DNA of 26,725 nt from a bacterium (GCA_040390065.1 JAZJZE010000043.1:1-26725), one strand, 5' to 3'. Shown: positions 5,310-20,665, counted from the first letter of the stretch. Translations and numbers: made by a program. Notes: generated by a model not told the origin, from the sequence alone.

Positions 5310-5380
5310 AGTGCACCAGCGGAATGTCAGCCCCAGGGGTTTCCCTCTGGGTTTGCTTGGTTCGGGGCACCTGTGGGCCC

Positions 5381-5386
5381 ATAAAA
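5381..5386 (-). promoter_or_regulatory. Probable TATA box of EF-2 (TTTTAT)
   Basis: Strongest TATA-like hexamer in GC-rich context, ~72 nt upstream of the ATG; implies a ~50 nt leader. Confidence 0.6.
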
Positions 5387-5392
5387 GGGTGG

Positions 5393-5410
5393 CGGGTCGC
5401 AAGGCGGCGT
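5393..5410 (+). repeat. Left island boundary: 18-bp direct repeat CGGGTCGCAAGGCGGCGT
   Basis: Exact copy at 18031-18048. Confidence 0.85.
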
Positions 5411-5585
5411 CCGTAATCCCCCGGAACGGCCGCTGAACGGCGAGAGTCCATCCGCGAAGGCCAAAGACAGGGCTGAGGGGCCGCAAACGGGCCGCCTTGC
5501 GGCGCCGGGGGGTGGTCCGCAGCACTTGCCGTGGCGGAGCGCACATGGCGCCGGCACCGGTTTTTGACGCCGACGCCACCCGTGT

Positions 5586-6854
5586 TTAGACAGCGTCGAC
5601 TATCCCTTGAAGCCCCTGAGCCAGCCGGTTGGCCGTTTGGGAGAGCTTGTGACGTGCGAGGCCGGCGACGGCCATGCTTACTCCATGCACGGTAACGCCG
5701 GCCGTCGTAAATCGCTCAAAGGCCGCGACTGTCCCTGGTAGCGTGTCCGGTTCTGCCAAACCCGGGTATAGCAAGACCACGGTGGTCGCTTCGTATGCCT
5801 TTGCGAAGGCCAGCGCTTCGTAGACGTCTGGCCGGGCTATGGTCCGCCTTTCGGATTCAATGGAGGCCTTGTATTTCGCATCGACCAGAAGGACTAGTGA
5901 AGTCGGTGGGCGGACCACTATGTCGGGGTGCACGAAGCGTTCGACGGTCGGGCCGCTCGGTAGGAACCGAGATTCCCCAAACAACAGTTTGCCTCGTTCG
6001 ACTTGGGCCGCTCCATGGTATTGGGCGAGAAGATTTGTTAGGAACCGCTCCCAGGTGGGCGCGGTGGGCAGCATGAACCCCGGCGCCCCTTCGTGAACAG
6101 GCTTGTCAAGACTCAGGCCGCCTTGGGCAAGATACGCCTTGGCCAGGTCATAGGCAGGCTGCCAACGCGTATGCCGGGGCGCCAAGCGCGCCTTGGGGCG
6201 GCGCCCGCTTGGGCTAGTTTGGGGCTGGATTCTGCCAGCCAGGCCGCGCAGCCTTACGCGCACTGCGGGGCTCCGCACTTCGGGCTGGAGTCGGCCCAGG
6301 GCTTGGCGGATGACCTCGGTTTCCGGCGTGGTGTCAAAATGCCGAAGCCCACGCTGCCGGAACCCGTCCGGGTTGGGCTCGTGGAATGCGTCTGGCACGA
6401 TCTCACCGGACACCTGGAACGAGTACCAAGAATCGCGCCGGTACTCGAACATGGGCCGCCGCATGGCTCGCTGGATTGAAGTCGCAAGGGCGGCGCCTAT
6501 CGCATCGGGGATGCTCGCCGAGGTGGCCCGAAACCCCAGGGCTGAAGAAACGTCCAGCGCCCCTCTGGTCGCGATGGTCGACAACAAGAGGAAATCATCG
6601 CGCCAACTTGGGTCGGCGGGGTCAAGAAACTTGGGCACGACCTCGACCGCCGTGGTCCGGTTCAGACGAACATAACCTGCAACACCGCGCACCGTGAAAG
6701 TGTTACGCCCTTCCTCAATGACTTGGGTCTGATTCGTCGACACGCGGATGCGACGGCGCAGCCGCGACAGCAAGGCTGAAGCCAAGTTGGGGTCGCCAGA
6801 CAGGCAATCGTAGGAATCGCGGCCTTTCTCCTCCCATAGAGATACGACCCGCAT
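5586..6854 (-). CDS. mcrC: McrC-like PD-(D/E)xK restriction endonuclease subunit
   Basis: N-terminal GVAGYV...EVVPKF, TWERFL, catalytic HPDIVV...LVDAKYK, DVYEALAF, VVLLYP; directly downstream of the McrB-like gene. Confidence 0.88.
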   Translation of the reverse strand: MRVVSLWEEKGRDSYDCLSGDPNLASALLSRLRRRIRVSTNQTQVIEEGRNTFTVRGVAGYVRLNRTTAVEVVPKFLDPADPSWRDDFLLLSTIATRGALDVSSALGFRATSASIPDAIGAALATSIQRAMRRPMFEYRRDSWYSFQVSGEIVPDAFHEPNPDGFRQRGLRHFDTTPETEVIRQALGRLQPEVRSPAVRVRLRGLAGRIQPQTSPSGRRPKARLAPRHTRWQPAYDLAKAYLAQGGLSLDKPVHEGAPGFMLPTAPTWERFLTNLLAQYHGAAQVERGKLLFGESRFLPSGPTVERFVHPDIVVRPPTSLVLLVDAKYKASIESERRTIARPDVYEALAFAKAYEATTVVLLYPGLAEPDTLPGTVAAFERFTTAGVTVHGVSMAVAGLARHKLSQTANRLAQGLQGIVDAV

Positions 6855-6865
6855 GGAACTCCAGT

Positions 6866-7984
6866 CTACGCCGCTTGACCCTGCGCCAATCGCGCCATTG
6901 ACCGAAGAGCCGCAAGGACATTGGCCGGACCGATTGTTGGCCCCTCCAGGGTTGGGTAGTCTTGCTCGCCCACCGAGTGCTCCACCATTTTCAACGGCGA
7001 CGTCGCAGATGCTCCGAGCACTTCGGCTTGAAGGCGGACGTCATCGAACAGGATTTCCTGGACATGCTGCTTCATCATGTGCCAGCAGGCGGTGGCAAAG
7101 GCGAGCGCGCCATCCTTGGTCGGTTCGTCGGGCGGCGTCGTCGCCATTAGCGCCCCGTGACCAAGCTGGTAGGCTGGACCGCGCACGATGGCGAGTTTGC
7201 GATTCATCTCTCGCCAGGCCGCGACAACTGTCCGGTAGATGTCCTCCGGCGTTTCGGTCCCTCCTGGTTGGGGTGGCTCGGTATCGGTCAACAGCCCCAG
7301 AAACGCTGCCAGAGCGCCTTCTTCCGGTTGGATTTCGATTGGATAGAAGCGGCGCCGGAACGCGACGTCCAACGGCGCAATGCTGGTATCGGCTTCATTC
7401 ATGGCCGCCAAAATGTAGAGGTGACTTGGCAGTGCAATTCTCTGAGGCTGGCCGTCGTCCCCTACTGTCTGCATGAAGGCCGTTAGGTGCGTTTCTTCAC
7501 CGGATTCGTTCAGCCGCTTGTCCACCTCGATGGCGGTGATGGCGTCACCAAAAACGGACACGGCTGGGCCACGGTTGATTTCGTCGATGGTGATGAGAGA
7601 GGCCCCGTTTGCGTGCTGCGCATGCTCCGATGCTAGGAGAAGCGTTCCCCGCGTCAAGGAGAATCCAGTTTGGCCTACGCCTAGTTTGGGAAGAATCCCG
7701 TAGACGAAGTCCCGATACTTGGTGTCCTGGTGGAACGTCATGGACCAAACCTTCGGCTGGGTGCGCGTCCTCGCGGGGAACCAATCGGGGAGATCTTCTT
7801 GCGGTGGAAACAGAACTGTGCCGCCAGGCGCGAAGGCAGTTCCTTGCCCCGCCCTCGTTGCAAAGCGTTTTGCAACCTCAGCCATGATGCGCGACTTGCC
7901 TGCTCCCGGCGGTCCCGTAAGCAAGACGTTTCGGTGCTTGGCCAACGCCCGCAAAACGGCCTCGACTTGCGTATCAATTGGCAT
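6866..7984 (-). CDS. mcrB: McrB-family AAA+ GTPase lacking an N-terminal DNA-binding domain
   Basis: Walker A GPPGAGKS at about residue 24, TFHQDTKYRDFV, Walker B IDEINRG, McrB signature MNEAD (NxxD), AFRRRF, QLGHG. Confidence 0.9.
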   Translation of the reverse strand: MPIDTQVEAVLRALAKHRNVLLTGPPGAGKSRIMAEVAKRFATRAGQGTAFAPGGTVLFPPQEDLPDWFPARTRTQPKVWSMTFHQDTKYRDFVYGILPKLGVGQTGFSLTRGTLLLASEHAQHANGASLITIDEINRGPAVSVFGDAITAIEVDKRLNESGEETHLTAFMQTVGDDGQPQRIALPSHLYILAAMNEADTSIAPLDVAFRRRFYPIEIQPEEGALAAFLGLLTDTEPPQPGGTETPEDIYRTVVAAWREMNRKLAIVRGPAYQLGHGALMATTPPDEPTKDGALAFATACWHMMKQHVQEILFDDVRLQAEVLGASATSPLKMVEHSVGEQDYPTLEGPTIGPANVLAALRSMARLAQGQAA

Positions 7985-7986
7985 GG

Positions 7987-8514
7987 TTAGACGACCTCCT
8001 GGCCCGTTTGGAGGTTGAGTGCACCAATAGCGCCCCTCTCAGAGTCCTTGAGGATTTTTTGGGCGAAATCCCGGACCCGCGAGTTGTTCTTGGAATAGTC
8101 CATGTCCAAATCGCCCCAAACCACGCCCCTGTCGTCAGCCACCAGCACGAAGAACCACGGTCGCTCCTTCTGGCGGAACTCCAGCATGTTGAGCATCCAC
8201 TTGGGAAAGAGATGGATGGTGCCGATACGCATCTCTTGATCTCGCGAAGCCGTGGGGGGATGAAGGGTGAGCGCAACCTTCTCTACCGTGCCGTCCGGCT
8301 TTACGAAGTGGACGTCCTGTGTGATTCGACCCTTGTCGTCGGGCTTGGCCTTGAACACGTTCTGCGCGAGAAAGGTCCCAAAACGCTTTGGCATCCTAAG
8401 GTCGCGGGCGCCTCCGCCGGTCCCAGCGTCGTTGCTGTCGGCTTGCGTTTTGCGGACATCTCCTTCCAGGACTTCCTTGAGGAAGACCCAGGTCGGCTTT
8501 CCAGGCTTTGTCAT
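7987..8514 (-). CDS. Hypothetical 175-aa protein; probable stand-alone B3/EcoRII-N-like DNA-recognition subunit
   Basis: ATGA-coupled to the upstream MTase and 2 nt before McrB; FLKEVLEGDV...NDAGTGGG...LRMPKRF...EMRIG resembles the B3/EcoRII-N pattern (by eye). Confidence 0.55.
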   Translation of the reverse strand: MTKPGKPTWVFLKEVLEGDVRKTQADSNDAGTGGGARDLRMPKRFGTFLAQNVFKAKPDDKGRITQDVHFVKPDGTVEKVALTLHPPTASRDQEMRIGTIHLFPKWMLNMLEFRQKERPWFFVLVADDRGVVWGDLDMDYSKNNSRVRDFAQKILKDSERGAIGALNLQTGQEVV

Positions 8515-10685
8515 GCGGTCGCCTTCTGAGTTGCCTGCGTGGGCACGTAGGGAGCGGCGCCTTGTTGCCGGGCGTCCTTGGCGCGGCCGGCAAAATGGTC
8601 GCTTCGGTCAACATCTTCGTGCGCCCATGCTGCGGCGAGAACAAGGTCGCGCGTAACGCTCGGCGATTCGCTCTGAATACGGGGTTGGTTGCGGTCCACC
8701 GAAGGGAAGTCATTGAGAAGAACTTCAACGTCATGAGCGGCCAACCCGTAGCCGCGAGCGACCAAGGCCTCGATGGTGCCTCGCAACATGCCAATCTGGA
8801 ACAGCCGCGCTTGAGACTTCGGTCCTTCTTCATGGCAATAGCGAGCTACCTTTTCGGAGGCAACGCGGAGCGCCTTTGTGTCGTGCTCAGACAGCACTGG
8901 AAGAGGAGCCTTGCGCAGAATGAAGAAATTCACCGTGTTGGTGACGTATCGGCGCATGAACCAATCAAAGGCGAATGAGTTCCAGACCGCCACGAGTTCT
9001 TCCCATGCCACAGGGATCTCGCTAGGAAGGACCGTGGGGACCTTGTTGCCGCAAACTGTTCCGGCCGGAATCCAGGAAGCGAGCATAGTGCGTTCGTTCG
9101 TTTGTCCAGTGATGTCGCAGAACCCGACGCGGTCATGTTCCACCCGGTCCTGAAGGCGTTCGGGAAGCTGGTCCTCGTCGACCCAGAATTGCGGATGTTC
9201 TGGCCGGTTGGCATATGGCCCGAGCGGTTCCCATTCGGCCCGCCGCCCGGTGCCCGACCGAAATGCCTTGGCCCCAGCGTCGTACTGGTGAACCATGCGC
9301 CCTTCAATGAGGGCCATGTGGTCTTGCTCATGTTCCCGCCGGAAGAGGTTGCGGTGGTTGGTCATGTCGAGTTCCCGGACGATGCTGCCCGGGCGCTGCA
9401 GCCATTCCGGAACCTGTCCATGCGTGTTCATCTTGCGCAAAATGTTCAATTCCTGCTTGTTGCGAACTTCCGGAATCAAGAAGTCCGGTCGCCGAACTTC
9501 ACGTCCCCTCTTCATCAGACGAACCGGTGCATTATCCTGGGCCACATGACCATTCGGCGTGTGTGGGTGCCCAAGGTCGAATGAGTCGCCAGGGGCGCTC
9601 GCGGGGCTGCCTGAGACAAGCAGGAACTTGAAACGTGAGTCGATGGGGAAGTGTCGCCCCTTGTTGTCCAGAACATCAAAGCGAAGCGCGTCCACGCCGT
9701 CGAATAGGGCCGCCCGCAACCGGCGCGTGCCTGAGTTGCGAATGAGACCCGCGGGCATTAGCACGGACATGTGCCCACGATTTTGCATCAGTTCCAGGCT
9801 CAGGGCAAGGAACGCTGAGGAAACATCGAGCTGCCCTCCTCCAAGAACGGGGAACCGTTCGCGGACAGCGTGCGAGTATGCAATGATGGAGTCGCGTTCG
9901 GTTGCAAAATTGGCCAGCGCGGCGTTTCGGACGGGCGCGCCGTAGTGGTGGTCCTCGTCGTGCTTGGCAACGTATTCGTGCCGACTTGGGCGCGGCTGTT
10001 CCCAAGGAGGATTGGCTAGAAACTCGGCCGGTGCGTCGACCAGGAAACCTTTCCATTCGGCGTCCGACGCGATCAGTGAATCGAAGGTGGCAAGATGCCG
10101 GCCCAACTTTTGGACGGTGGATGCCCGGCTTGCGGCGGAAGCCAAGGCCAGTCTCGCGCCGCGCACCGCAAGCGGGTCCCGGTCGACCCCGAAGAATCGA
10201 GTCGCGAGCGCTTCGTCAAGCTGCTTCGGCGCTTCATTCTGGAGGGCGACCGCTCGGGCAGCCAACAGGATGCCTGCCCCGCAGGCTGGGTCAAGGACAG
10301 GACCTTTGGGTTTTCCCAGAGAAGGCAAGGCCGCCACGAGGTGTTGCGCCAGACGCGAATCGGTGTAGAAGGCGCCGGCTTGACGACGTCCCGAGGAATC
10401 GCATGCACGATCTGCAAGAGCCGCGAAGGCGATGGGCGGCGGAATTCCCGTCGACTGAATCTCATGAAGGATTGCGGCGGAGGCTGCCACTGCGTCGCCC
10501 TTGCGCAGATGACGAGCGCGGCCAAAACCGTCTCCGATGCCATCAACGTCAAGCCCGGCATGCAGGGCGGCAGCATGTTCCAGAATGGCTAGCGCCTGCT
10601 CCGCTCCCAAGGAGCGGCTTGCGTTCTCGAGTGTGGCGCGGGCGGGCCAAAGGAGACGCTCGTCGCGAGTCTGGGGCTTGGTCAC
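8511..10685 (-). CDS. Gamma-class N6-adenine DNA methyltransferase (Eco57I/type IIG-like M domain plus TRD), ~724 aa
   Basis: GAFYT, VLDPACGAG (SAM binding), ANPPW (motif IV); GTG start at 10685 overlaps the upstream stop (GTGA); no obvious nuclease domain. Confidence 0.85.
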   Translation of the reverse strand: MTKPQTRDERLLWPARATLENASRSLGAEQALAILEHAAALHAGLDVDGIGDGFGRARHLRKGDAVAASAAILHEIQSTGIPPPIAFAALADRACDSSGRRQAGAFYTDSRLAQHLVAALPSLGKPKGPVLDPACGAGILLAARAVALQNEAPKQLDEALATRFFGVDRDPLAVRGARLALASAASRASTVQKLGRHLATFDSLIASDAEWKGFLVDAPAEFLANPPWEQPRPSRHEYVAKHDEDHHYGAPVRNAALANFATERDSIIAYSHAVRERFPVLGGGQLDVSSAFLALSLELMQNRGHMSVLMPAGLIRNSGTRRLRAALFDGVDALRFDVLDNKGRHFPIDSRFKFLLVSGSPASAPGDSFDLGHPHTPNGHVAQDNAPVRLMKRGREVRRPDFLIPEVRNKQELNILRKMNTHGQVPEWLQRPGSIVRELDMTNHRNLFRREHEQDHMALIEGRMVHQYDAGAKAFRSGTGRRAEWEPLGPYANRPEHPQFWVDEDQLPERLQDRVEHDRVGFCDITGQTNERTMLASWIPAGTVCGNKVPTVLPSEIPVAWEELVAVWNSFAFDWFMRRYVTNTVNFFILRKAPLPVLSEHDTKALRVASEKVARYCHEEGPKSQARLFQIGMLRGTIEALVARGYGLAAHDVEVLLNDFPSVDRNQPRIQSESPSVTRDLVLAAAWAHEDVDRSDHFAGRAKDARQQGAAPYVPTQATQKATA

Positions 10686-11809
10686 GGGCTGCGACCCCCC
10701 ATGCGGACGTCGAAAAGGAGTTCCTCGACCGTTTCCCCGTTCTTCTTCGCATCTTGATTGGAAAGGTAGCGGCCAATGGCCCCGATACGCTTGACGGTTA
10801 CTTTCCCGTGCTGCGACAGAACGTCGAGGATTGCGGATTCTGTGAGATGCCCCTCGTTGCTGTAGGACATGAGCAGTCGCCCGGCCGATAGCCCTGCGGC
10901 AAGGCGTTCGAGAGCGACCTTCGCCTTCCGTTTGTAGCAAAAGTCGCTGCTCCGCTGCTCCCATGGTCGCAGGCCTGTGATGCCTTGGACAACCGGCACG
11001 TCCTCGCAGGCCAGAGTCTCCAGGATGTGGTAGTATGCAGCATACTGGCGCTTCGTGTAGGGCGGGTCCAAGTAGACCACATCCTCGCGGGTTGTTGCGA
11101 CTGCGTCTGCGTCATCACGGGACCAGGAGAAGGCGGGGGCCCCGTCAGCCCGCAAGGCTCGCGGTATAAGGCGCAAAGGCCGGAGCGCATTGGGCTGCCA
11201 TTTGCTCATGAAGCAGCCATAGGTGCCTGCGATGTTCGCCACCGCGTTTGTGGCGAGCATGAGGTCAGACAAGAGAACCATGTGCTCTAGCTGCGTAATC
11301 TGGCCCAACTGTTGCCATGCCGCAATCGTCGCACGAATTGCGTCGATTTTCATTGCGTTGCTGCGCGTGAAATACATCCTCCCCGGCGCGCTGAGGTCGA
11401 GCGGGCGGCTGTATTCGCGTGCGAAAAAGCGCCGCGTAGGTCGCGCCTCGTTTAGGTCTTGAATGGCCTGAACGTAGCCGTCCCTGACCGCGAAGGGGAC
11501 GTCACTTTCGCGGGCCAGTCCGGCCACGGATGTGCATACCGCCGACGACAGGTGGTCGTTGATGTGCACTCGCCATCCCGTCTGGGCCGCCCATTGGGCG
11601 ACGGCACCCGTGCCTGACATGATGTCGACGAATCGCCCACCGTTCGTCGGCGCATCGCCAAGCGCACGCATGATGGCCCGCACGACGCGCGTCTTGTTGC
11701 CGAGGTAGCGGAGCCTGGACGCACCCGACGTCGGTCCGCCAGGGTTTGGTTGCGGCGCTGGCTTCGTCACCAGGACGGTGCGCGCGCGCTGCAAGCCAGA
11801 ACTCGCCAT
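10682..11809 (-). CDS. Alpha-class (D12, M.FokI/M.NlaIII-like) N6-adenine DNA methyltransferase, ~375 aa
   Basis: LRYLGNK, FVDIMSGTGAV, VANIAGTYG, YLDPPY, YHILET, MSYSNEG; TTAAAG box ~20 nt upstream of ATG 11809. Confidence 0.9.
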   Translation of the reverse strand: MASSGLQRARTVLVTKPAPQPNPGGPTSGASRLRYLGNKTRVVRAIMRALGDAPTNGGRFVDIMSGTGAVAQWAAQTGWRVHINDHLSSAVCTSVAGLARESDVPFAVRDGYVQAIQDLNEARPTRRFFAREYSRPLDLSAPGRMYFTRSNAMKIDAIRATIAAWQQLGQITQLEHMVLLSDLMLATNAVANIAGTYGCFMSKWQPNALRPLRLIPRALRADGAPAFSWSRDDADAVATTREDVVYLDPPYTKRQYAAYYHILETLACEDVPVVQGITGLRPWEQRSSDFCYKRKAKVALERLAAGLSAGRLLMSYSNEGHLTESAILDVLSQHGKVTVKRIGAIGRYLSNQDAKKNGETVEELLFDVRMGGRSP

Positions 11810-11940
11810 GTTGGGGTCTCCATGCTTTAAGTGCCATATGGGGCTACCGTAGGGACTCAAGGCTCTCCACTCTGTTGAGTAGGATGAACCACGCGGGGAG
11901 GTCGGTGAAAGTGGTTCCAGCGACCCCGGTGCGCGATGAC

Positions 11941-13308
11941 TCATGTGGCGTTCGCCTCGCCCAGATGCCGCGTCCGGCCCGCCGCCACGGTCATGGAATG
12001 GTAAAGCGTCCCTAGGTCGACCCACGTCGAGTCCGCCAGCGATTGGGCACCGCCGACGAAATTGATCTCGATGCCGTGCTCTACCGAGAGCACGACGAGC
12101 CGGGTGAGGTTGTATGCGATGGCCATGCAGAGAATCTCGTTGCGCTGCGCGGTCGGGTTGCTGGAGTAGATTTGGTCGCCGAGGAACGCCTTGAAGGCAC
12201 GGTTGCCGGTCTCGGCGTTACTGCGGCGGTTGGCACGCGCCGCGTAGCCCTCGGGGTCGATGCGGGACTGGTGGACGTAGGCGCGATACGCCTTCGCTCG
12301 CGCACCCGTCTGGCGGCTAGGTGCGGCGTTCGCCTTGAGCTTGATTTGCGGCTCGATGCCGTGGCGCCGCGCGTACTCGTAGATGTAGTAGGCATTGTAC
12401 GCCTTGTCCGCACCAAGTTCGCGCAGGTCGAGCATGATGCTCGCGCGTTCCAACAGCGGCAGCAACCACGGGGCCTCGCCGAAGGGGCCGGGTTGCGCGT
12501 AGAGCGCGGCAATCATCGTGTATTCGTAGGTCCACAGAAACTCCGCGTAGTTCCAGCGGTGTTCGCGGCGCTCGGGGCGCTTGTGGTGCTTCTCCTCGAA
12601 GAAGGCCGTGAAGTGCTGCTCCGTGAGACCAGTGCCGTCGGGATGCACGAGCGTCTCGTAGGGCTTGGCGGGCCACGTGGTCAACGCGAGCAGCTTCTCC
12701 AACAGAGTCGTCGTCTCGGAGTCGACGAGGAACTTACTCATCGTGCTCCGGCTGAAGCCACCGTAGGGGTTGTGCTGCCGGTGGTCCGCGCTCGCCATGA
12801 GGCCCTGGCTCGCGCGCAGGTTGTTTCGCCACGCGACCCGCATGATGCTCTGGTAGAGCAAACCGAAGGTCGACGCGGGCGGACGGCCGCCCTTGGGGTT
12901 GATGACGGGTGGCTCGACCATGACCGGCAAGCCTTCGCGCAGAAGTCTCCCGAGCAGCTCGGGCAACTTCGTCGGCACGAGCTTCCATGCCGCCTCTTCA
13001 AGGCCGTGGTCGCGTGCTTCGTTGCCTTTGCGGTAGACGTCGGCGGCCGTGTTTGGCGTGATGGCTAGGCCCTCGTAGATGAGGACCGCGAGGATGTGGC
13101 TGCACGGCTGGTCCTGGCTGTTGCGCTTGTCCGACGAGCATCGGAACTGGTCGCCCACGCGGCGAACGCGAACGCGCCGGCTCGGGGTGCGGAGGCTGTA
13201 GACCTCCCAACGTTCCGGGTTGACCTTGAGGATGGCGTCCTCATGGCTGAGGATTTTCATGGTGTTGGCGACCATGTTGCGCGCCAGGCTCCGGACGTCG
13301 AGGGTCAC
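11941..13308 (-). CDS. DDE transposase (IS4/IS5-like) with an N-terminal SWIM-like Zn finger, ~455 aa
   Basis: FRCSSD...PCSHILAV (SWIM-like), PDGTG (D1), ADKAY (D2), RSNAETGNRAFK (R-x3-E-x6-K), AYNL; GTG start overlaps the upstream stop (GTGA). Alternative ATG starts lie slightly downstream. Confidence 0.85.
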   Translation of the reverse strand: MTLDVRSLARNMVANTMKILSHEDAILKVNPERWEVYSLRTPSRRVRVRRVGDQFRCSSDKRNSQDQPCSHILAVLIYEGLAITPNTAADVYRKGNEARDHGLEEAAWKLVPTKLPELLGRLLREGLPVMVEPPVINPKGGRPPASTFGLLYQSIMRVAWRNNLRASQGLMASADHRQHNPYGGFSRSTMSKFLVDSETTTLLEKLLALTTWPAKPYETLVHPDGTGLTEQHFTAFFEEKHHKRPERREHRWNYAEFLWTYEYTMIAALYAQPGPFGEAPWLLPLLERASIMLDLRELGADKAYNAYYIYEYARRHGIEPQIKLKANAAPSRQTGARAKAYRAYVHQSRIDPEGYAARANRRSNAETGNRAFKAFLGDQIYSSNPTAQRNEILCMAIAYNLTRLVVLSVEHGIEINFVGGAQSLADSTWVDLGTLYHSMTVAAGRTRHLGEANAT

Positions 13309-14066
13309 AGGCTGTGCCTCCGGTGCTTGACTCCGCCCGAGTAGCCGAGGTGCTGGTCGAGCCAATCGTTGCCGGTCGTCTCGGGCGCTGCCTCGGGTTT
13401 GGCCCAGATTCCATCCGGCAGGCTCATGGGCGGCCTGCCGGGCGGCGGCGTCTCGGGGGACTCCTCGACCTTGTGGCCGTTGGCACCTTTCAGGTTGCTG
13501 ACCAGCGCAGCTAGGCCAATGCCTGCTGCCGCGACGCCTCCTGCCACGAGCCAGCCCTCGCCGGGCGCCTTGCTCGTCGGCTCCGGTGGCGGAGTCGGTT
13601 CGATCTCCGGGGCTTGCGTCAGGGGCGCCGATTGCAGGGGCGCGGGTGTCGGCGGGGTGGCCACGGGGGCGGGCGCTTGCACGGCGGTAGGCTCCGGTGC
13701 TCGCTGCCACGCCGCCTCTGCAATGCGTTGGTCCGCGCGCGCACGGCTGGCTTCGAGCGACTTCTCGGTCAACTCTTGCAGAGCACGCTTGAAATCCGCC
13801 TTCGCGTCGGTCGCGGCCGGTTGCGGCGAGGCCGGCGGCGAGGTTGGGGTCGGGCTCGCGGCCTTCCGACTGGCAGCATGGCGGTGCGCGCCGCGCACCC
13901 TTGCGCCCGCCTTGGTGGGCTTGTGGTTCGGCCCGAGGGGCATCCTCATCCCATGGGCCTGGCGGAAGGATGCATGGGTGCCGTCGTTGAAGGTCGCAAG
14001 GTGTCCGCTGCGGCCCTTGAGGCTGCGGAAGGTCCGGCCGCACGCGGGGCAGGTCGTGTCGGTCAT
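13305..14066 (-). CDS. C2H2-like Zn-finger protein with Pro-rich linker and one hydrophobic segment, ~253 aa
   Basis: CPAC-x3-F-x8-H...H at the N-terminus; WLVAGGVAAAGIGLAALV segment; coupled to the transposase. Confidence 0.65.
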   Translation of the reverse strand: MTDTTCPACGRTFRSLKGRSGHLATFNDGTHASFRQAHGMRMPLGPNHKPTKAGARVRGAHRHAASRKAASPTPTSPPASPQPAATDAKADFKRALQELTEKSLEASRARADQRIAEAAWQRAPEPTAVQAPAPVATPPTPAPLQSAPLTQAPEIEPTPPPEPTSKAPGEGWLVAGGVAAAGIGLAALVSNLKGANGHKVEESPETPPPGRPPMSLPDGIWAKPEAAPETTGNDWLDQHLGYSGGVKHRRHSL

Positions 14067-15384
14067 GCTGCACGCCATTGCGCGGCAGTCCGCATAACCC
14101 GTGGACGACCCCTGGCCCCACGTGGCCCCCAGGTCTCTACCATGAAGGATAGGGTGTGGCGGGAGGGCCACATCAAGGGACGCGCATAGGTCGGCACCAG
14201 TGGTTCCAACAGGAGGGAAAGGGTGCTTGGGTGAGGGTGTTCCGGGGTGGCGCCACTGGTGCCAACCCGTGCCGACTGTCGCATATCAACAAGGTTGGCG
14301 ACGGACCACGATGAAGGCTGGAGGAGCCCTCTGCACCCCTGTGCACCTTTTGCGCGGGGGTCACGTGTAGCCACGTGGGGGGCACGTTGGGTCGTCACGC
14401 GGGACCTGTTGGTGGCCGCCCAACGAATACGGATGACGTAGGTATGGGTAGGGTGGTCGACGGCCTGCTGATATGAAGAAAGGGCGAGGGCGGCGTGCGT
14501 GCTCTCCTGTTGGATGCGTCCATACCCATCCTTACCCGACCCATGGGTGCGCGTCATCGGAGACCCGGTGGCTTCGCCTCCAACCTATACTGTCGCGCAC
14601 CCGTCGCGTACTGTGGGGCGCGCAACAGGAGGAAAACGCGTCCTCGGCCTTCACCCTTGAAGGCTCGCGGACCCCGCGCTTGATAAACCGCATTTGAAGG
14701 GTGCATGGTCCCACTACCCCACACGGTTCACCAAAGGGTGCACAGGTCACCCAAGCGCCGGGCGCGGGCGGGCAAGCGTGAAGACAGCACCCTTCGTGGT
14801 GCGGACCCAATGCCGCGAGTCAAGGGTGCTGCAACGGTGCTTCACGTCAAGGGTCCAGTCGTATTGGACTGGGGCAACGGCATCCGAATCCAACTCCCGC
14901 CCGCGGGCGTGATGGGTGCTCCCGCACCCATCGCCTCGCCTGCCCGCAAGGGTGCTGGGCGCCCGCCCAGCGCGGCCACACTTGCCTTGCGTGACGCGAT
15001 GGCCAAGGATGCCCAGTCAGAGCACCCTCGAAGTCGAGCCCACTACCTCGCCGTGCTACAGGGCGCTGGTGGCCCCGTCTCACCCAACGCGGCGGGCATC
15101 ATCATCAACCGGGAGGCCAAGCGTGCGTTCGGTCACCCATTGGGAAGGGGGAAGGCCAAGGGTGCATCCAAGGGTGCTCGCCGGGGTGGGCGCCAGGCGT
15201 CCCCGGCTACGGCAGCCTTGAGGGCGAAGCTCGCCGAGGATGCCGCGAGGGGTGAGGTGCGGGATGCACCCTTTTACGTACGATGGGTCGTGACCAGCCC
15301 GGCGTCAAACTCGGGTTGAAGGGTGCTCGGCCAATCGCTTACCGCGAGCTTCGGACTGTCCGCGGGTGAACCAGCGGCACCCTT
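13895..15384. repeat. Dispersed cluster of the 8-mer AAGGGTGC/GCACCCTT
   Basis: Exact copies at 13895(-), 14219, 14697, 14734, 14787(-), 14822, 14948, 15158, 15170, 15266(-), 15319, 15377(-), plus many 1-mismatch variants. Confidence 0.9.
14810..15369 (+). CDS. Small basic protein with two tandem homologous helical domains; apparent frameshift near 15291
   Basis: Repeat 1 GRPPSAATLALRDAMAKDA...HYL...IIINREAK; repeat 2 GRQASPATAALRAKLAEDA...FYV. The frame stops at 15319, but the -1 frame continues DQPGVKLGLKGARPIAYRELRTVRG* to 15369 and completes repeat 2. Confidence 0.65.
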
Positions 15385-15409
15385 GTGGTCAGCTTGGAGG
15401 GCGGGCTTG

Positions 15410-15580
15410 CTAGGGCAGAACGTATCCAAGCGTGAGGAAGAGGGCGCCGCCTCCGAGCCATGCGGGCACCGTGAACTTGATGCCGTTGCCAAGGTCGACC
15501 TTGGAGATCCCGATGGCGAGATGACCAAGTCCGCCGAGGACCAGAATGGCGATACCGATGAGGGAGAACTCGAACGCCAT
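15410..15580 (-). CDS. 56-aa two-TM membrane protein (absent from the ORF track)
   Basis: MAFEFSLIGIAILVLGGLGHLAIGISKVDLGNGIKFTVPAWLGGGALFLTLGYVLP*; ATG lies 4 nt after the upstream stop. Confidence 0.7.
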   Translation of the reverse strand: MAFEFSLIGIAILVLGGLGHLAIGISKVDLGNGIKFTVPAWLGGGALFLTLGYVLP

Positions 15581-15584
15581 GATC

Positions 15585-16835
15585 TCAGGCCCTCTTGGCG
15601 TACGGGCTGTTCAGGGACAGGCCGGCTGAAAATGCGCTCAGCGGGTTGTCGGCGGGGCCATCGTCCTGCAAGGCCTTGCGAAGCTGGCTCGCGATTTCGG
15701 CCTTGTAGGTTTCCAGTTTGGGCACCAGGGTGTAAATGGTCCCAGTGTCAATCCTGACGACGCGCGTCTGCTGGATGTCGAAGGGAATCTTGTCGGCTGC
15801 CCGGGCGATGTGGATGGTGGGCAACCGGGCTGCATGCCGCAGGCAGAGCTCATAGAAGACGTTCGGGTTGAGGAATGAGAGGTCGGCGATGACGACCTTT
15901 GCGCGAAGGGTGTGCTCGAAGGTCTGATGCCCAATCATTCCTGCCTTGCCGATTGCATCGGCGCGCACGACCTGGAGACCCAACGGTTCGACGGCGGGCC
16001 GCACGATTGCTTCCAGGAATAGGTCGGAGTGCATCCGCTCCTCGGAACCTTCCTCCCCGATTGGTGCGATGTAGAAGCACGTCTTCTCCCACGCCACGTC
16101 GGGCGCTGCGCTCGAAGCAGTCCCAGATGCGAGTGCCGTGTCCCGCGTTTCTGGGGTGCGGGATTGAGTCGGCGTCGCCTTGGGCGTCTCTTCGAGGATG
16201 TGCTCAAGGGTGACGAGGCGGTCGGCACCAGCCAGGGTGCGAAGGGCACCCACGAACTTCGCGTTCGTCACGAAGGTGTCAACGCATTCGTCCTGGGCAT
16301 CCGGTTCAACGCCAACCTCGGCAAGGGCGTCCTTCATGACCGCCTTCGCGGGGAGTTTGTTGCCCTTGAACCGGTCGTGCAGGATGCGGAAGGGCTCGAC
16401 GTTGGTGATGGCGAGCTTGAACCTTGCTTGCGCCTTCGCATAAGCGGAAGCATCGGGGTCTGTTGCAGTGCGGCCGTCAGGGGTCAGTTCGAGCGTCTCT
16501 GCACCGTAGCCGCCGGTCGTGATTCCGTACCTTCCGGAGCTTGTGATGAGGGCTCGTGTTTGGCTGCTGTCCGGCGACTTCTTCATGTTATCCAGGAGGG
16601 TGATGCGCCGTACCTGCTGTCCGGACGCGTGCTCCTGGATGCCGTTGCCAATCTCCAGGGCATCCTCGAACGTTTCCGAGGGGAACGGGCGAGTCGTGCG
16701 CTTGCGGCGGGCCTTGACGTCGGCCGCAGTCTCCGGCAGCGGAGCAGCTTCCAGCACTGTGGCGCCGAGATGGCCGTTGGTCGTAGGGGTGGGCGTGACG
16801 GGGGCTTCGTTGTCGGACATGGGATTGTTCTCCAT
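15585..16835 (-). CDS. N-terminal wHTH-like domain plus C-terminal nucleoside 2-deoxyribosyltransferase (NDT)-like nucleotide hydrolase domain, 416 aa
   Basis: C-domain CFYIAPIG...RAD...VIADLSFLNPNVFYEL...IPFDI; N-domain RPFP...SSGRYGIT...LELTPDGR; perfect SD before ATG 16835. Confidence 0.8.
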   Translation of the reverse strand: MENNPMSDNEAPVTPTPTTNGHLGATVLEAAPLPETAADVKARRKRTTRPFPSETFEDALEIGNGIQEHASGQQVRRITLLDNMKKSPDSSQTRALITSSGRYGITTGGYGAETLELTPDGRTATDPDASAYAKAQARFKLAITNVEPFRILHDRFKGNKLPAKAVMKDALAEVGVEPDAQDECVDTFVTNAKFVGALRTLAGADRLVTLEHILEETPKATPTQSRTPETRDTALASGTASSAAPDVAWEKTCFYIAPIGEEGSEERMHSDLFLEAIVRPAVEPLGLQVVRADAIGKAGMIGHQTFEHTLRAKVVIADLSFLNPNVFYELCLRHAARLPTIHIARAADKIPFDIQQTRVVRIDTGTIYTLVPKLETYKAEIASQLRKALQDDGPADNPLSAFSAGLSLNSPYAKRA

Positions 16836-16840
16836 GGTGT

Positions 16841-16848
16841 TCACCTCC
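16841..16848 (-). promoter_or_regulatory. Shine-Dalgarno GGAGGTGA
   Basis: 5 nt upstream of ATG 16835. Confidence 0.8.
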
Positions 16849-16956
16849 GGGAGCGCCAGGGCCTTGAGGCAACTAACGGACCCGTGAGTGAAACCACCAC
16901 CCGCGGACCCGTTATGTAGGTTGTACAAGGGTACTATCTGTACAAGACGAGCAGTC

Positions 16957-17889
16957 TCAACGTCTCGCTAGGCCGGAGAGTTCATCGCGGGCCAACAGGG
17001 CGAAGGTGGTTCCTGGTTCGGTAAGGACGACCAGCCGCTCCAGGCCCTTGACTTGTGTCTCAACGAGCCGTCTCTTTTCGAGGTCGGCCAACCTGGTGCG
17101 GAGGCGCCCTAAGGCCTTGCTGTGGAGTGTACGCAAAGTACCCATCGGCTTGCGTGTTTTCGGCGTGCGCTGTTCGGCTCGCTTCGTCTGCTTTAGCGCG
17201 TGCCGCTTGGCCACGGTCGACGGCAGCAAGTCGGCGAAATCCTCCATGGCTGCTTCGGGGTATGGGATCAGATGCTCAAGCAGTTCGCTGCGCGTGGCGC
17301 GGCCTCCCTTGTTGAGGAGAAACGCAAGCACCTGCCATTCGTAGCGTTCTAGGTGCACAAGGGGGATGGCGGGAATTGCAAGGACATCGCGTAGGCCAAC
17401 TGACATGCCATGGCGTTCCCACAGGTCCTGACGCTTCTTGGGGTCGCTTTCCCGCTCCGTGTACTTCTCCGGCTGCACGTAGTAGAGCGAGACGAGGCCC
17501 GTCTGTTGATATGCCATGCCGCCTAGGCCGGCGGCAAACGCACCAATCTTTGAGCCGGAACTGATGTTGATGCGAACCTGATTGTGGCCTCGGTAGGCCT
17601 CAAGGTGGCATAGCTCAACGACCTTGGCCAAGGTGTTTTCGAATTCGACGCTCCTTCCGCCTTCTGTCTTTGCGATGGGGTGGGTCTGGACCTCCAGGCC
17701 CAGCTTTTCCAACTCCGCAGCCACCCGTTCGGGGAATCCAAGGCCGCCCTTGGGGTCAGGGACCACCAGATGCACACGGTTGGCGTGTTGCCGGCGGTTG
17801 TCCTTCAACTCGGCCATGAAGGGCAAGACCGCACGGTCGAACTCCCACCCAATAGGAAGGACATGGACAACGACGTGCCTGCCCTTCAT
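16957..17889 (-). CDS. DUF6293/HFX_2341-type CARF-like domain plus C-terminal wHTH transcriptional regulator
   Basis: HVLPIGWEFDRAVLP, RVHLV, VRINISSGSKI (CARF-like loop), LYYVQPEKY; wHTH ending LEKRRLVE...VVLTEPG. Confidence 0.8.
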   Translation of the reverse strand: MKGRHVVVHVLPIGWEFDRAVLPFMAELKDNRRQHANRVHLVVPDPKGGLGFPERVAAELEKLGLEVQTHPIAKTEGGRSVEFENTLAKVVELCHLEAYRGHNQVRINISSGSKIGAFAAGLGGMAYQQTGLVSLYYVQPEKYTERESDPKKRQDLWERHGMSVGLRDVLAIPAIPLVHLERYEWQVLAFLLNKGGRATRSELLEHLIPYPEAAMEDFADLLPSTVAKRHALKQTKRAEQRTPKTRKPMGTLRTLHSKALGRLRTRLADLEKRRLVETQVKGLERLVVLTEPGTTFALLARDELSGLARR

Positions 17890-18030
17890 GGGTGCGGAAG
17901 GCGTCGATGGTATCTACAAGGCTGCCGAGTCGACATGGCGCCTGGACAAGGACGACATCGAGAGTCCGTCCGGAAACGGCCCGGGTCCAGCCGGATAGGC
18001 CCGGTCAAGGGGGCGGTTCAAAGACGCCGC

Positions 18031-18048
18031 CGGGTCGCAAGGCGGCGT
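18031..18048 (+). repeat. Right island boundary: 18-bp direct repeat within the palindrome ACGCCGCC-N9-GGCGGCGT (18024-18048)
   Basis: Exact match to 5393-5410. Confidence 0.85.
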
Positions 18049-18085
18049 GCCATGGGTTCAAGACCCTGGCTGGCTCGGAACTCGC

Positions 18086-19435
18086 GTGCCTCTCGTCTGC
18101 CCGCGGTGCGGCACCATGGTGCAGTTCCCTCCGGGGACGGTCCCTTGGTGTCCGACCTGCGGTTTCACGGGCCCCCTTCCATCCCCGCGGCCGGCGCAAC
18201 CGGCGGCGCCGCCCCCTTCGGCGGCATCGGCACGCGCGGCGCACCCGCCGTCTCCCCCGGCCTCGCCGGTTCCGACCGTTCGGCCGCCGCCGGCCGGGCC
18301 CCGTGCGCCGCCGGCCCGTGAAACAGGTGGCAGGCCAGCGTCGGCCGGCACGGCCCCGGCGTCCATGAACCCGGCGCGCACGGGAAAGGTGCGGACCATG
18401 GTTGTCGCTGCATTCGTCGCTGGAACGCTCTTGGCCAGTGGCGCCTGGGTGGCCGTTCTCTTCCTTCACAAGGATAGTCCCTCGATTCCGGGCACTGCAG
18501 CCGCGCCGGCTGGATTATTGGCGGACGTGCGGGCCGCGTTGGCAGGCGAGATTCCTGATGTGACGGAGGTCCACGGCACGCTTGCGGACATCGTTTACGC
18601 GGGCGCCCCAGACTATTCCTACAAAGTGTCGCCGCGGCCGGTGCATCTCGTCTACGGCGCGAACGGTGTGCAAGTTTTCACCTCATCCTGGACGGCCATT
18701 GACGGCCCGACCGGGGCCCGGACATGGTGCGCTGATGGTCTCCTGTACATGGTGTGGGGCGCGGACTGGAATACCACGTCGCGGGCCACCTCGATTGTCA
18801 GGGAGGAATACTCGGCCTCTGGCTGCAGCATCCACAAGGCCCTCGATCCGGACCGGTGGTCGGACGACCTTGCAAACGCAACGCCGACATCCGTCAGCCC
18901 AATGGGGGACGGATTCGTCGCCACGGCGACGTCGGTTCGCGGTGCGTTCAACGTGACCTTCGACGGCGCGATGCATGCCGCGCGCGTGCAGGTTTTTGGC
19001 GTGGCGGGTGAGCCTATTGCGGACCTGTGGGTCGAGAGAGGGATGCGACAGGCCGTTGCCCTGCCGCCGGGAGAGCGGGTGCCCATGTACGTGGACGTCT
19101 GCTCCTCTTCTGGGGCAACGGAATTTTCGTGGCGACTGGGGCGCCTGCCGTTCTCCCTGCCCTTGCGGGACCTGCACTTTACCTACGTCGAGGCGGGCAA
19201 CCGGTCGGGAAGTGTCGGGTCGCGGCACTCCTTCCAGGTCGGTGACCCTGCCGACGCGAGCGGGTCGTGGCTCGAGTACAAGGACGTGGACGCCGACGCG
19301 CGGCTATCGAAGGGCGATGTCGCCGTCCTGCATCACCGCAACGACGGCGGTCGCGGGGCCGAGAGACTCGACGATGACTGGTCGGGAAAGATGGCCCCGG
19401 AGACACACGGGTCATGTCCGGCCGGCTCATCCTGA
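18086..19435 (+). CDS. Zinc-ribbon, Pro-rich, single-TM protein with a large extracellular domain
   Basis: CPRC...CPTC, PAAPP-rich linker, TM MVVAAFVAG..., DVDADARLSKGD motif; GTG 18086 preferred over 18047, which falls in the boundary repeat. Confidence 0.7.
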   Translation: MPLVCPRCGTMVQFPPGTVPWCPTCGFTGPLPSPRPAQPAAPPPSAASARAAHPPSPPASPVPTVRPPPAGPRAPPARETGGRPASAGTAPASMNPARTGKVRTMVVAAFVAGTLLASGAWVAVLFLHKDSPSIPGTAAAPAGLLADVRAALAGEIPDVTEVHGTLADIVYAGAPDYSYKVSPRPVHLVYGANGVQVFTSSWTAIDGPTGARTWCADGLLYMVWGADWNTTSRATSIVREEYSASGCSIHKALDPDRWSDDLANATPTSVSPMGDGFVATATSVRGAFNVTFDGAMHAARVQVFGVAGEPIADLWVERGMRQAVALPPGERVPMYVDVCSSSGATEFSWRLGRLPFSLPLRDLHFTYVEAGNRSGSVGSRHSFQVGDPADASGSWLEYKDVDADARLSKGDVAVLHHRNDGGRGAERLDDDWSGKMAPETHGSCPAGSS

Positions 19436-19552
19436 GCGCCACCTTCCGGAAGCCGGTGGAGCGAGCGTTGGTGGCCGGCCTGCCGCCCGCGACGTCCACG
19501 TTTCAACTCCTGACTACGTTCCTTAAGTAAGCACCCAGAGCGTTCGTGCACG

Positions 19553-20665
19553 ATGGCTCCTACCATCAAGACCCTGACCGCGCTGGCAGCCCTCCTCATG
19601 GCATTGCCCAGTGCTTCGGCGTTGGCTGCGACGCACGCGGCCGACGCCGCCTTGCCCCCCTCCCTCGACCCGAACGCCCTTCTTGCCTCGGCCGGCGGCC
19701 AAGCCGACTCTGGCGGGAAGGCGGCGACCGACACGCTTCGTGCCGTGTCCGATACCGCAGACCGTGCCACGGGCACGCTCGCCGTCGCGACGCAGCCCAT
19801 CCTCGACCTGGCGACGAACAGCTTGTCATGCCGCCCCGCCGTCCACGTCAAACTCGACTGGTTCGGCGGCCGCGTCACGGACTCCCGCGACGGCTCGGGT
19901 TCGTTCCTCGTGCCCTACACGCTGGTCTCCAAGCAGACGATCCAAGTGCCGCGGCTCGAGACGGTGACGGAGACCGTGTGGAGCGCCGGCAGCGTGCTCG
20001 ACGCCTTCGTCGCACCCATCACACGCACGACGACCCGTGTCATCGGCGACGACGTGCAGACCGTGGTGACGCAGACGCCCGCGGACCTTTGGGCGATGGC
20101 CTCATGGCGCGAGGACTACATCGTGTGGTCGGCCTACTATGACGACTGGTACGTGAGCCCGCTTGCGTCGCTGCCGGCGACGCCGGGCATGAGCCATGGA
20201 GCCATCGAGTTGCAGTGCGATCCATCGGCGGTCATCCTCGGCTCGGTCCCCGACCCGTGGCGCGCCGGCGTCGACACATACTGCTTGTGCGCCAGCAGAC
20301 CCGTCGACGGCTGGTACGTCAGCATCGTGTCGCTCGACGTCAACCTCGCCAACGCGCAGCAGTACCGGACGGCATGGGCGTCGCCCGCGAGCGCCCCGAC
20401 CGTCGTCGCCGACGCCGCCATTGCCAAGGCCGGCGTGCTATCGTTCACGCCGGACCAACTGGCCCGTCAGGCGCAAGACCGCGCCGACGCCGGCCGGCCG
20501 GATGCCCCGACGGCCAGCCGCGACCCGGCAATCGCGCCCCAGACGAGCACGTGCTCGACCCTGAACGTGCCGTTGTCGACGGGCTTGATGCTGGGCACCC
20601 TCGGCGTCTCCATCCTCGCCGCCCTCGGCTTGGGAGCCCACCGCATTGTGCGCCGCAAGGCGTGA
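19553..20665 (+). CDS. Secreted hypothetical protein with C-terminal TM anchor
   Basis: Signal peptide, C-terminal TM plus RRK tail; TTAAGTA TATA-like box at ~19523-19529. Confidence 0.75.
   Translation: MAPTIKTLTALAALLMALPSASALAATHAADAALPPSLDPNALLASAGGQADSGGKAATDTLRAVSDTADRATGTLAVATQPILDLATNSLSCRPAVHVKLDWFGGRVTDSRDGSGSFLVPYTLVSKQTIQVPRLETVTETVWSAGSVLDAFVAPITRTTTRVIGDDVQTVVTQTPADLWAMASWREDYIVWSAYYDDWYVSPLASLPATPGMSHGAIELQCDPSAVILGSVPDPWRAGVDTYCLCASRPVDGWYVSIVSLDVNLANAQQYRTAWASPASAPTVVADAAIAKAGVLSFTPDQLARQAQDRADAGRPDAPTASRDPAIAPQTSTCSTLNVPLSTGLMLGTLGVSILAALGLGAHRIVRRKA

Follow-up and report, generated by a model that had tools for sequence, protein, structure and literature searches.

Archaeal defence islands are usually attributed to integrases, viruses or plasmids. 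The island considered here occupies positions 5403-18031 of a 26,725-base window at the start of contig C43 (35,851 bases; GCA_040390065.1, JAZJZE010000043.1) in the archaeal genome G000 (2,677,426 bases in 50 contigs, 89% complete, 67% G+C), and lies upstream of the gene for EF-2. The described systems that resemble it most closely are the IS903 group of the IS5 family, the transporter insertion sequences (tIS), the Tn7-like transposons and the promoter-directed elements. The IS903 group is defined by simple insertion sequences (IS) of ~1-1.5 kb with one gene and no passenger genes. Ty3, Tf1 and Mutator-like elements are promoter-directed, inserting at a set distance from the transcription-start machinery; Mutator-like elements also produce 9-bp duplications, contain SWIM fingers and can carry pieces of host genes. 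The duplication produced by Tn7 is 5 bp, compared with 9 bp in the island. Ends beginning GGC are presumably typical of the IS903 group (ISfinder). IS903B is reported to give 9-bp repeats (PMC10513040), and IS with passenger genes have been described as restricted to IS1595 and IS66 (TnCentral preprint). Tn7-like transposons are described as having large defence-rich cargo and safe sites beside housekeeping genes (PMC8649781; bioRxiv 10.1101/2025.07.27.667033).

A first-pass annotation of the window had proposed an integrase-less island with ends readable either as att sites or as inverted repeats with a 9-bp duplication. The results presented here indicate, with a probability of about 0.8, that the island is a cargo-carrying IS5-like archaeal unit transposon located at the upstream edge of the EF-2 promoter. 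The likeness to the IS903 group consists of a PF01609-type DDE transposase with a best NCBIfam match in the IS5 family, the 9-bp duplication and short inverted ends beginning with GGC. In contrast to that group, the family represented in the window has 8-11 kb of cargo, is single copy and is found beside promoters; its transposase scores only 68 bits where the NCBIfam cut-off is 140, carries an additional zinc-binding domain at the N terminus and is often accompanied by a C2H2 partner gene. A single transposase, short inverted ends, a duplication and internal passenger genes are features shared with tIS, from which the window element differs in being IS5-like, archaeal and equipped with whole defence systems. 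The defence cargo and safe-site habit are reminiscent of Tn7-like transposons, whereas the window family has one IS5-like transposase, no TnsA, TnsB, TnsC or target selector, and several promoters rather than one att site as targets. The transposase and integrase families of Ty3, Tf1 and Mutator-like elements are different, the catalytic domain in the window being PF01609 and not MULE. Full-text literature searches (supplements not covered) returned no description of such an element family, and a term search of a 2026 survey of archaeal IS found 'SWIM', 'passenger' and 'promoter' zero times (supplements not covered).

Termini of the Island and Related Elements

The 18-mer CGGGTCGCAAGGCGGCGT is present as exact copies at 5393-5410 and 18031-18048, confirming the first-pass annotation, and its parsing into perfect inverted ends with an adjoining 9-bp duplication also reads as stated there (Table 1). 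The concern that the 18-mer is a common genome-wide repeat proved unfounded, the two window copies being the sole exact occurrences in G000; five other sites with 2 mismatches were found compared with two for a backwards-read control. No further copy with up to 2 mismatches was detected in the window, and none of 100 shuffles gave two matches. The direct repeat stops at 18 nucleotides (nt) with no extension beyond. An independent assembly of the probable source run covers 5071-19500 with zero differences. The G+C content is 0.59-0.65 within the island versus 0.67-0.73 outside, and third-position G+C is 0.64-0.78 for island genes versus 0.83-0.90 for host genes. Since chance repeats of 15-17 nt are frequent and 9+9 pairs not rare in a genome of 67% G+C, the terminal repeat by itself is only moderately significant, and the weight comes from homologous elements. 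Exact 15-17-nt direct repeats are common within 80 kb of G000, and of 383 random 36-kb regions 27 (7%) had their centre enclosed by an exact 9-nt inverted repeat that adjoins an exact 9-nt direct repeat. A perfect 11-nt inverted repeat, CGCAAGGCGGC at the junction of duplication and terminal repeat (5398-5408) and GCCGCCTTGCG at 5491-5501, was also observed, the latter 82 nt inside the element.

Approximately 70 homologue clusters of the transposase were found among 5.8 billion proteins; the named clusters are transposase or hypothetical and derive from metagenome-assembled genomes labelled Thermoplasmatota, Thermoplasmata or Halobacteriales. Close homologues were restricted to two families of one order among 197 genomes of the class, and matches at E <=1e-50 were obtained only for G000, G012 and G017 among 401 genomes sampled across the phylum. 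Metagenome contigs contributed four loci, namely a whole element (L195), a 12.4-kb locus without ends (L196) and two fragments, and no relatives were found in viral contigs. Scanning of 14 transposase-homologue loci for inverted ends and adjoining duplications identified four in which exact inverted repeats of 9 nt or longer are combined with an exact 9-nt duplication and an AT-rich box: the window, G012:C24, L195 and G017:C2 (Table 1). When the count is limited to loci where the transposase gene is unbroken and has no less than ~4.8 kb of sequence to either side, ends were present in four of five, the miss being a paralogue on contig C4 of G000.

The inverted ends of the four delimited elements are 9, 9, 13 and 9 (14/15) nt and all four have exact 9-bp duplications. 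The pattern GGCKGYGTC fits the ends of the window, G012:C24 and L195 elements, and the 11-nt GTCTTTGAACC, read inward, is identical in one window end (the 18023-18031 side) and one G012:C24 end. The four duplications differ in sequence and the insertion sites are non-homologous. Varied duplications at unrelated sites combined with conserved ends indicate a transposase and not a site-specific recombinase. In L195 the third-position G+C changes at the ends, from 0.91-0.95 for host genes to 0.69-0.80 for element genes.

The transposase gene is the only gene common to all four elements, which are 9.9-12.6 kb, single copy, and contain 8-14 open reading frames (ORFs) in addition to it. Named defence cargo is present in three of the four. 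The window element encodes McrBC, two DNA methyltransferases, a TIR-like effector and a CARF protein, all predicted from sequence. L195 contains two HsdM genes, HsdR and a KwaB-like pair, a combination of type I restriction-modification (R-M) and a Kiwa-like system; G012 contains a KwaB-like gene with an upstream partner, a 2OG-Fe(II) oxygenase and others; and the cargo of G017 consists mostly of proteins without an assigned family. In the window, as at G012:C24, G000:C4, G007:C10 and G007:C1, the transposase gene is preceded by a C2H2 gene. The C2H2 protein of the G017 element is encoded elsewhere in the element, the match between the G012 and G017 proteins being weak (45 residues), and no C2H2 gene was found in the L195 element. 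The proposal of a cargo-carrying archaeal transposon is supported by three homologues in similar-sized elements with their own 9-bp duplications and varying cargo; the expectation that homologues would share the same kind of ends holds for two (GGCTGTGTC and GGCTGCGTCCCGT) and not for the third (ACGAGCGTT). As judged by sequence, this is a small family that, among the genomes searched, does not extend beyond one order of archaea labelled Thermoplasmatota. Complete defence systems (McrBC, R-M, Kiwa-like, TIR/CARF) appear to travel in it as units of 10-12.6 kb, moved by one IS5-like transposase.

In the proposed mechanism, the transposase would bind the two 9-bp inverted ends GGCGGCGTC and GACGCCGCC, cut out or copy the element, and join it to a target whose strands are cut 9 bp apart; repair of the staggered ends would yield the GGGTCGCAA duplication. 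The rest of the element (McrBC, two DNA methyltransferases, the TIR-like effector, the CARF regulator and small ORFs) would be carried as cargo, and insertion 5-7 nt from a TATA-like box would leave the host promoter whole.

The ten loci without ends comprise four on contigs of 12.4 kb or less, five with broken or partial transposase genes, and the intact G000:C4 paralogue. Weak candidate ends were noted at a few, all of them regarded as chance or undecided. At G012:C5 a 7-nt inverted repeat, a 9-nt duplication and an AT-rich box were seen; at G007:C1 a 12-nt inverted repeat with an 8/9 duplication reads like coding sequence; and G000:C4 and G029:C108 have 7-8-nt repeats with 8/9 duplications. 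A BLAST search with the eight known ends against the other loci gave no match at termini. The G000:C4 region (~92,000-118,000) is a second low-G+C region with a 60%-identical pair of C2H2 and transposase genes (101656-102888), around which no ends were found. Its neighbours include a tyrosine recombinase match (106228-106731), a transposase fragment (121428-121562), and resolvase-family matches that are strong at 106906-107340 and weak, sub-cut-off at 108637-108951; this may be a mobile region that is nested or has decayed. Beside the C4 paralogue, 14 nt matching the 18-mer fall within the coding sequence of a 163-residue protein, a match taken as chance.

Insertion Beside Promoters

In all four elements a TATA-like box is separated by 5-7 nt from one copy of the duplication. 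Four of four elements have an AT-rich hexamer at 4-9 nt from the duplication on one flank and none has it on the other, the background being 2.8% of genome positions. The window duplication begins 7 nt beyond the conserved EF-2 TATA box. The first 150 residues of EF-2 are 95-98% identical in 12 of 12 same-genus genomes, in all of which TTTTAT, or a sequence close to it, also lies ~70-75 nt before the EF-2 start with a C-rich stretch ahead of it; beyond this box the upstream sequence is unrelated between species. For the G012 element the box is TGAAATA, which lies ahead of the A-type ATP synthase operon and is conserved there in the 11 relatives for which an alignment was obtained. In L195 a lipoprotein gene has its ATG 21 nt after the box. 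The earlier suggestion that a housekeeping promoter serves as the site is supported for the conserved EF-2 promoter here and for the ATP synthase operon promoter in G012. A C-rich box followed by a TATA-like box has only 14 occurrences in G000. At several of these an ORF begins at +22 to +26, the spacing of leaderless archaeal mRNAs, and one of the 14 is the promoter-like box that precedes the C2H2 and transposase genes within the element.

The transposase gene and most of the cargo are co-directional with the adjacent host gene in all four elements, which may reflect selection against colliding transcription. The constant spacing from the TATA box argues for targeting over survival of harmless insertions. 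We tentatively suggest that the transposase of this lineage-specific, defence-carrying archaeal family may be directed to the upstream side of promoters, at a constant 5-7 nt from the TATA box, with the promoter DNA read by its N-terminal zinc-binding domain or by the C2H2 partner, or with docking onto a promoter bent by bound TBP/TFB; this suggestion could well prove wrong. The chemistry of transposition, any targeting by the transposase itself rather than through selection, and the mode of promoter recognition are inferred. Should the enzyme itself select the position beside the TATA box, this would be a natural promoter-seeking transposase in a domain with eukaryote-like transcription machinery and a prokaryotic counterpart of Ty3/Tf1 promoter-directed integration, with the EF-2 and ATP synthase promoters as safe sites for mobile immunity. 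Such an enzyme could serve archaeal genetics, and would bear on the means by which mobile elements reach sites in compact genomes where they do no harm.

An empty site was sought for the G012 element; homologues of its flanking genes, 33-51% identical, are not adjacent in any of 12 same-genus genomes. At the ATP synthase loci of relatives (L186, L188-L191 and L194), tblastn matches were obtained to the gene downstream of the G012 element, itself a weak V_ATPase_I match. One or two in-frame TGA or TAG codons occur within these matches in 6 of 13 genomes and may be due to frame slippage of the alignment across atpH and atpI.

The EF-2 Locus in Relatives and Alternative Explanations

Synteny with G004 is kept from the gene at 19553-20665 to 26460, and the same gene is ~400 nt from EF-2 in G007. 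Nucleotide homology to G004 stops at ~5397 and resumes at 19501, and the left boundary of the island is supported by this sequence comparison. The slot upstream of EF-2 looks variable between species, being occupied in G004 by an unrelated ORF for a lipoprotein-like protein of 224 residues and consisting in G007 of only ~400 nt.

Several results weigh against a unit transposon that inserts beside promoters. The syntenic relatives G004 and G007 lack not only the island but also the zinc-ribbon gene of the right flank, so that the right junction is not confirmable by an empty site. An empty site, with the flanks joined over a single GGGTCGCAA and then GGCGGCGTG, was found neither in relatives nor in the contigs of run X1, and no excision or circle junction was seen in the assembled contigs of that one run, which is probably the source. 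The inverted ends are very short, only 9 nt in two of four elements, and convincing ends are lacking at 10 of 14 loci. The second copy in G000 is only 60% identical, with no sign of recent transposition, and both the family and the target rule depend on four elements only. When the ends are matched by homology, the end next to the promoter in the window element is the opposite one to that in the G012 element, with the consequence that the shared orientation holds only relative to gene direction. Finally, the direct repeat is 18 nt and not 9, a length that results from the match of GGCGGCGT, after the right duplication, to the start of the left end; this extra GGCGGCGT is more simply accommodated by an att core.

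An improbable account of the 18-nt repeat within the transposon reading is that two insertions occurred successively at the edge of the EF-2 promoter, GGCGGCGT being the end of an older decayed element, the zinc-ribbon gene its leftover cargo, and the same 9 bp having been reused at a position fixed by the distance from the TATA box. Consistent with this history, positions 18041-19500 are absent from G004 and G007, the third-position G+C of 0.77 is island-like, and GGTTCAAGAC at 18055-18064 in the host flank resembles the sub-terminal GGTTCAAAGAC at 18013-18023 inside the right end, 42 nt before. However, neither a distal end nor a duplication is present at 19436-19500, where GACGTCCAC matches the end at 6/9 and the next 9 nt match the duplication at 3/9 (by eye), and the 8-nt coincidence is not extreme. 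No counterpart of GGCGGCGT was found beside the duplications of the other three elements. With GGCGGCGTC a frequent 9-mer on this contig (10 copies in 35.8 kb, counting both strands) and the island picked for its long repeat, the GGCGGCGT match is possibly a coincidence.

It is very unlikely that the locus is instead a site-specific integrative island in which the 18-mers are attL and attR, derived from a symmetric attP with 9-nt arms and a 9-nt spacer and acted on by a tyrosine or serine recombinase supplied in trans or since lost. The exactness and 18-nt length of the direct repeat and the dyad symmetry that the joined ends would show are accommodated by such an island, and the six tyrosine recombinase and six resolvase matches found elsewhere in G000 by six-frame searches could in principle act in trans. 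Neither kind of recombinase was detected on contig C43 by six-frame searches with PF00589 and PF00239 or by Pfam and NCBIfam scans of 10 island ORFs, in agreement with the first-pass annotation, and a split integrase gene would not fit into the non-coding ends of 175 and 141 nt. The 18-mer is otherwise missing from G000, where all five 2-mismatch sites lie away from integrase matches; a search of 185,579 species genomes yielded 82 single hits, each in a bacterial record and not one in an archaeal record. An island of this kind would be expected to share one att core with its relatives, usually within a tRNA or other conserved gene; the related elements have like ends with unrelated 9-bp repeats at unrelated sites, and the window contains no tRNA target. 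The att reading of the ends offered in the first-pass annotation is not supported. Hardly credible is a chance repeat around a low-G+C block that entered otherwise, for example by flank recombination after uptake of foreign DNA, with the transposase gene as a passenger: direct repeats of 15-17 nt are indeed common, 9+9 pairs are present in 7% of random regions, and the transposase gene is not enclosed in a compact IS with inverted ends of its own, but three other transposase homologues are bracketed alike, two with homologous ends and one with a 13-nt inverted repeat and exact 9-nt duplication, and the ends of the island coincide with the change in composition and, on the left, with the end of homology to relatives.

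The Transposase

The database gene call for the transposase is 455 residues (P0001). The product matched PF01609 with 32.1 bits against a cut-off of 23; its best NCBIfam match was the IS5 model NF033579 (transpos_IS5_2, E 7e-19), for which 68.4 bits fails the curated cut-off of 140. The catalytic D, D and E are intact, D200, D277 and E342 being invariant across 40 homologues, as are C33, D36, C45 and H47 of the N-terminal beta-sheet/helix domain. The AlphaFold model (predicted local distance difference test score, pLDDT, 87; predicted template modelling score, pTM, 0.84) has an RNase-H-like transposase fold, and the nearest solved folds are the ISCth4 and Tn5 transposases at low TM-scores of 0.27-0.37. 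ISCth4 is, we assume, an IS256-family enzyme. A PDB sequence search with the transposase profile returned no match.

The protein had been called a SWIM-DDE enzyme and the only recombinase of the island in the first-pass annotation. The DDE domain and its status as the sole recombinase stand; the SWIM match is sub-threshold, with E 0.031 and 14.3 bits against a cut-off of 19.6 over 12 residues. The accompanying comparison with Mutator-type enzymes gives way to an IS4/IS5-type assignment (PF01609; NCBIfam IS5), and membership in the Mutator-like/IS256 superfamily was rejected on the grounds that the catalytic domain matches PF01609 and not MULE. Three other candidates were also rejected. For a compact IS, inverted repeats close to the transposase gene reached at best 15/20, which is not significant, at both genomic copies. 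For a composite transposon, the island has one transposase gene and the sole other genomic match is on contig C4. For a Tn7-like transposon, no TnsA, TnsB or TnsC-type families were found among the island ORFs, and the AAA_5 protein is McrB-like and paired with McrC.

Gene Content of the Island and Flanks

The features of the window and the four delimited elements are listed in Table 1. Further matches were obtained for several products. The McrB-like product has an NCBIfam McrB match (E 2.3e-18) that is far below the cut-off, and the product of 8511-10964 matches the NCBIfam Alw26I/Eco31I/Esp3I family methyltransferase (E 3.9e-26, below cut-off) and PADLOC REase_MTase_IIG (E 4.6e-16). The 288-residue C2H2-like protein matches Pfam zf-C2H2_4 at E 0.1 only. 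No Pfam match was found for the 447-residue TIR-like protein. It adjoins the CARF and winged-helix protein (15585-17889), without a CRISPR locus attached in the window, an arrangement that suggests a signal-controlled defence or regulatory pair. The zinc-ribbon protein of the right flank, the gene for which is island-like in third-position G+C (0.77), matches proteins of 40 relatives only in its first ~15-200 residues, mostly the N-terminal zinc ribbon, and these matches are never beside EF-2. No tRNA gene or Rfam RNA family was found in the window.

Table 1. Features of the window and of the four delimited elements (element coordinates are those of the respective contig or region).
Feature	Position	Strand	Remarks
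EF-2 gene, host, left flank	3111-5309	-	Pfam GTP_EFTU, EFG_III, EFG_IV, EFG_C and others
Putative EF-2 promoter	5381-5393	-	TATA box TTTTAT 5381-5386; upstream GCCACCC 5387-5393
Target-site duplication (9 bp), left copy	5394-5402	+	GGGTCGCAA
Terminal inverted repeat	5403-5411	+	GGCGGCGTC; beyond 3' end of transposase gene; perfect inverted copy of 18023-18031
McrC-like gene, cargo	5586-6854	-	PF10117 McrBC E 7.4e-17
McrB-like AAA+ GTPase gene, cargo	6866-7984	-	PF07728 AAA_5 E 9.1e-15
ORF, 175 residues	7987-8514	-	No match in Pfam, NCBIfam, PADLOC
N6-adenine DNA methyltransferase, 817 residues, cargo	8511-10964	-	Type II/IIG-like; PF02384 E 1.6e-6
D12-class adenine methyltransferase, cargo	10682-~11815	-	Start codon uncertain; PF02086 E 1.1e-24; PADLOC MTase_II E 7.5e-58
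DDE transposase	11941-~13236	-	IS4/IS5-type catalytic domain; PF01609 E 1.2e-7
Protein of 288 residues	13305-14171	-	C2H2-like zinc finger and one hydrophobic helix; upstream of transposase gene
Promoter-like box (putative)	14692-14703	-	CACCC-TTCAAAT; inside element, upstream of C2H2 and transposase genes
ORF, 204 residues	14705-15319	+	No family match (Pfam, NCBIfam, PADLOC)
Protein of 447 residues, cargo	15585-16928	-	C-terminal TIR-like effector domain; PADLOC PDLC00733 'Effector TIR' E 2e-10, residues 300-389
CARF-like and winged-helix regulator, cargo	16957-17889	-	PF19810 HFX_2341_N E 4.2e-17; PADLOC CARF3--CARF E 1.8e-22
Terminal inverted repeat	18023-18031	+	GACGCCGCC; GGTTCAAA just before
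Target-site duplication (9 bp), right copy	18032-18040	+	GGGTCGCAA
GGCGGCGT in right flank	18041-18048	+	Equals first 8 nt of left terminal repeat
Zinc-ribbon membrane protein gene, right flank	18047-19435	+	Outside element; GTG start at 18086 likelier
Window element	5403-18031		12,629 bp; transposase identity 100%; end GGCGGCGTC; duplication GGGTCGCAA; flank, outward: duplication, GCCACCC, TTTTATGG
G012:C24 element	8231-18117		9,887 bp; transposase identity 72%; end GGCTGTGTC; duplication CGCCCCACC; flank, outward: duplication, CAACCCC, TGAAATAG
L195 (metagenome) element	3445-14960		11,516 bp; transposase identity 66%; end GGCTGCGTCCCGT; duplication CTCGGCGAC; flank, outward: duplication, ACAACCC, TCTTATAG
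G017:C2 element	16336-28613 (region coordinates)		12,278 bp; transposase identity 54%; end ACGAGCGTT, extending to 14/15; duplication CTGGGAGGT; flank, outward: duplication, AGAAC, ATTTATCC

A 29-nt imperfect direct repeat (76%) at 11891-11919 and 14180-14208 brackets the C2H2 and transposase genes, and one of its copies doubles as an arm of a nearby inverted repeat (14184-14208 and 14248-14272). The 29-nt repeat may mark an inner two-gene module consisting of the C2H2 and transposase genes.

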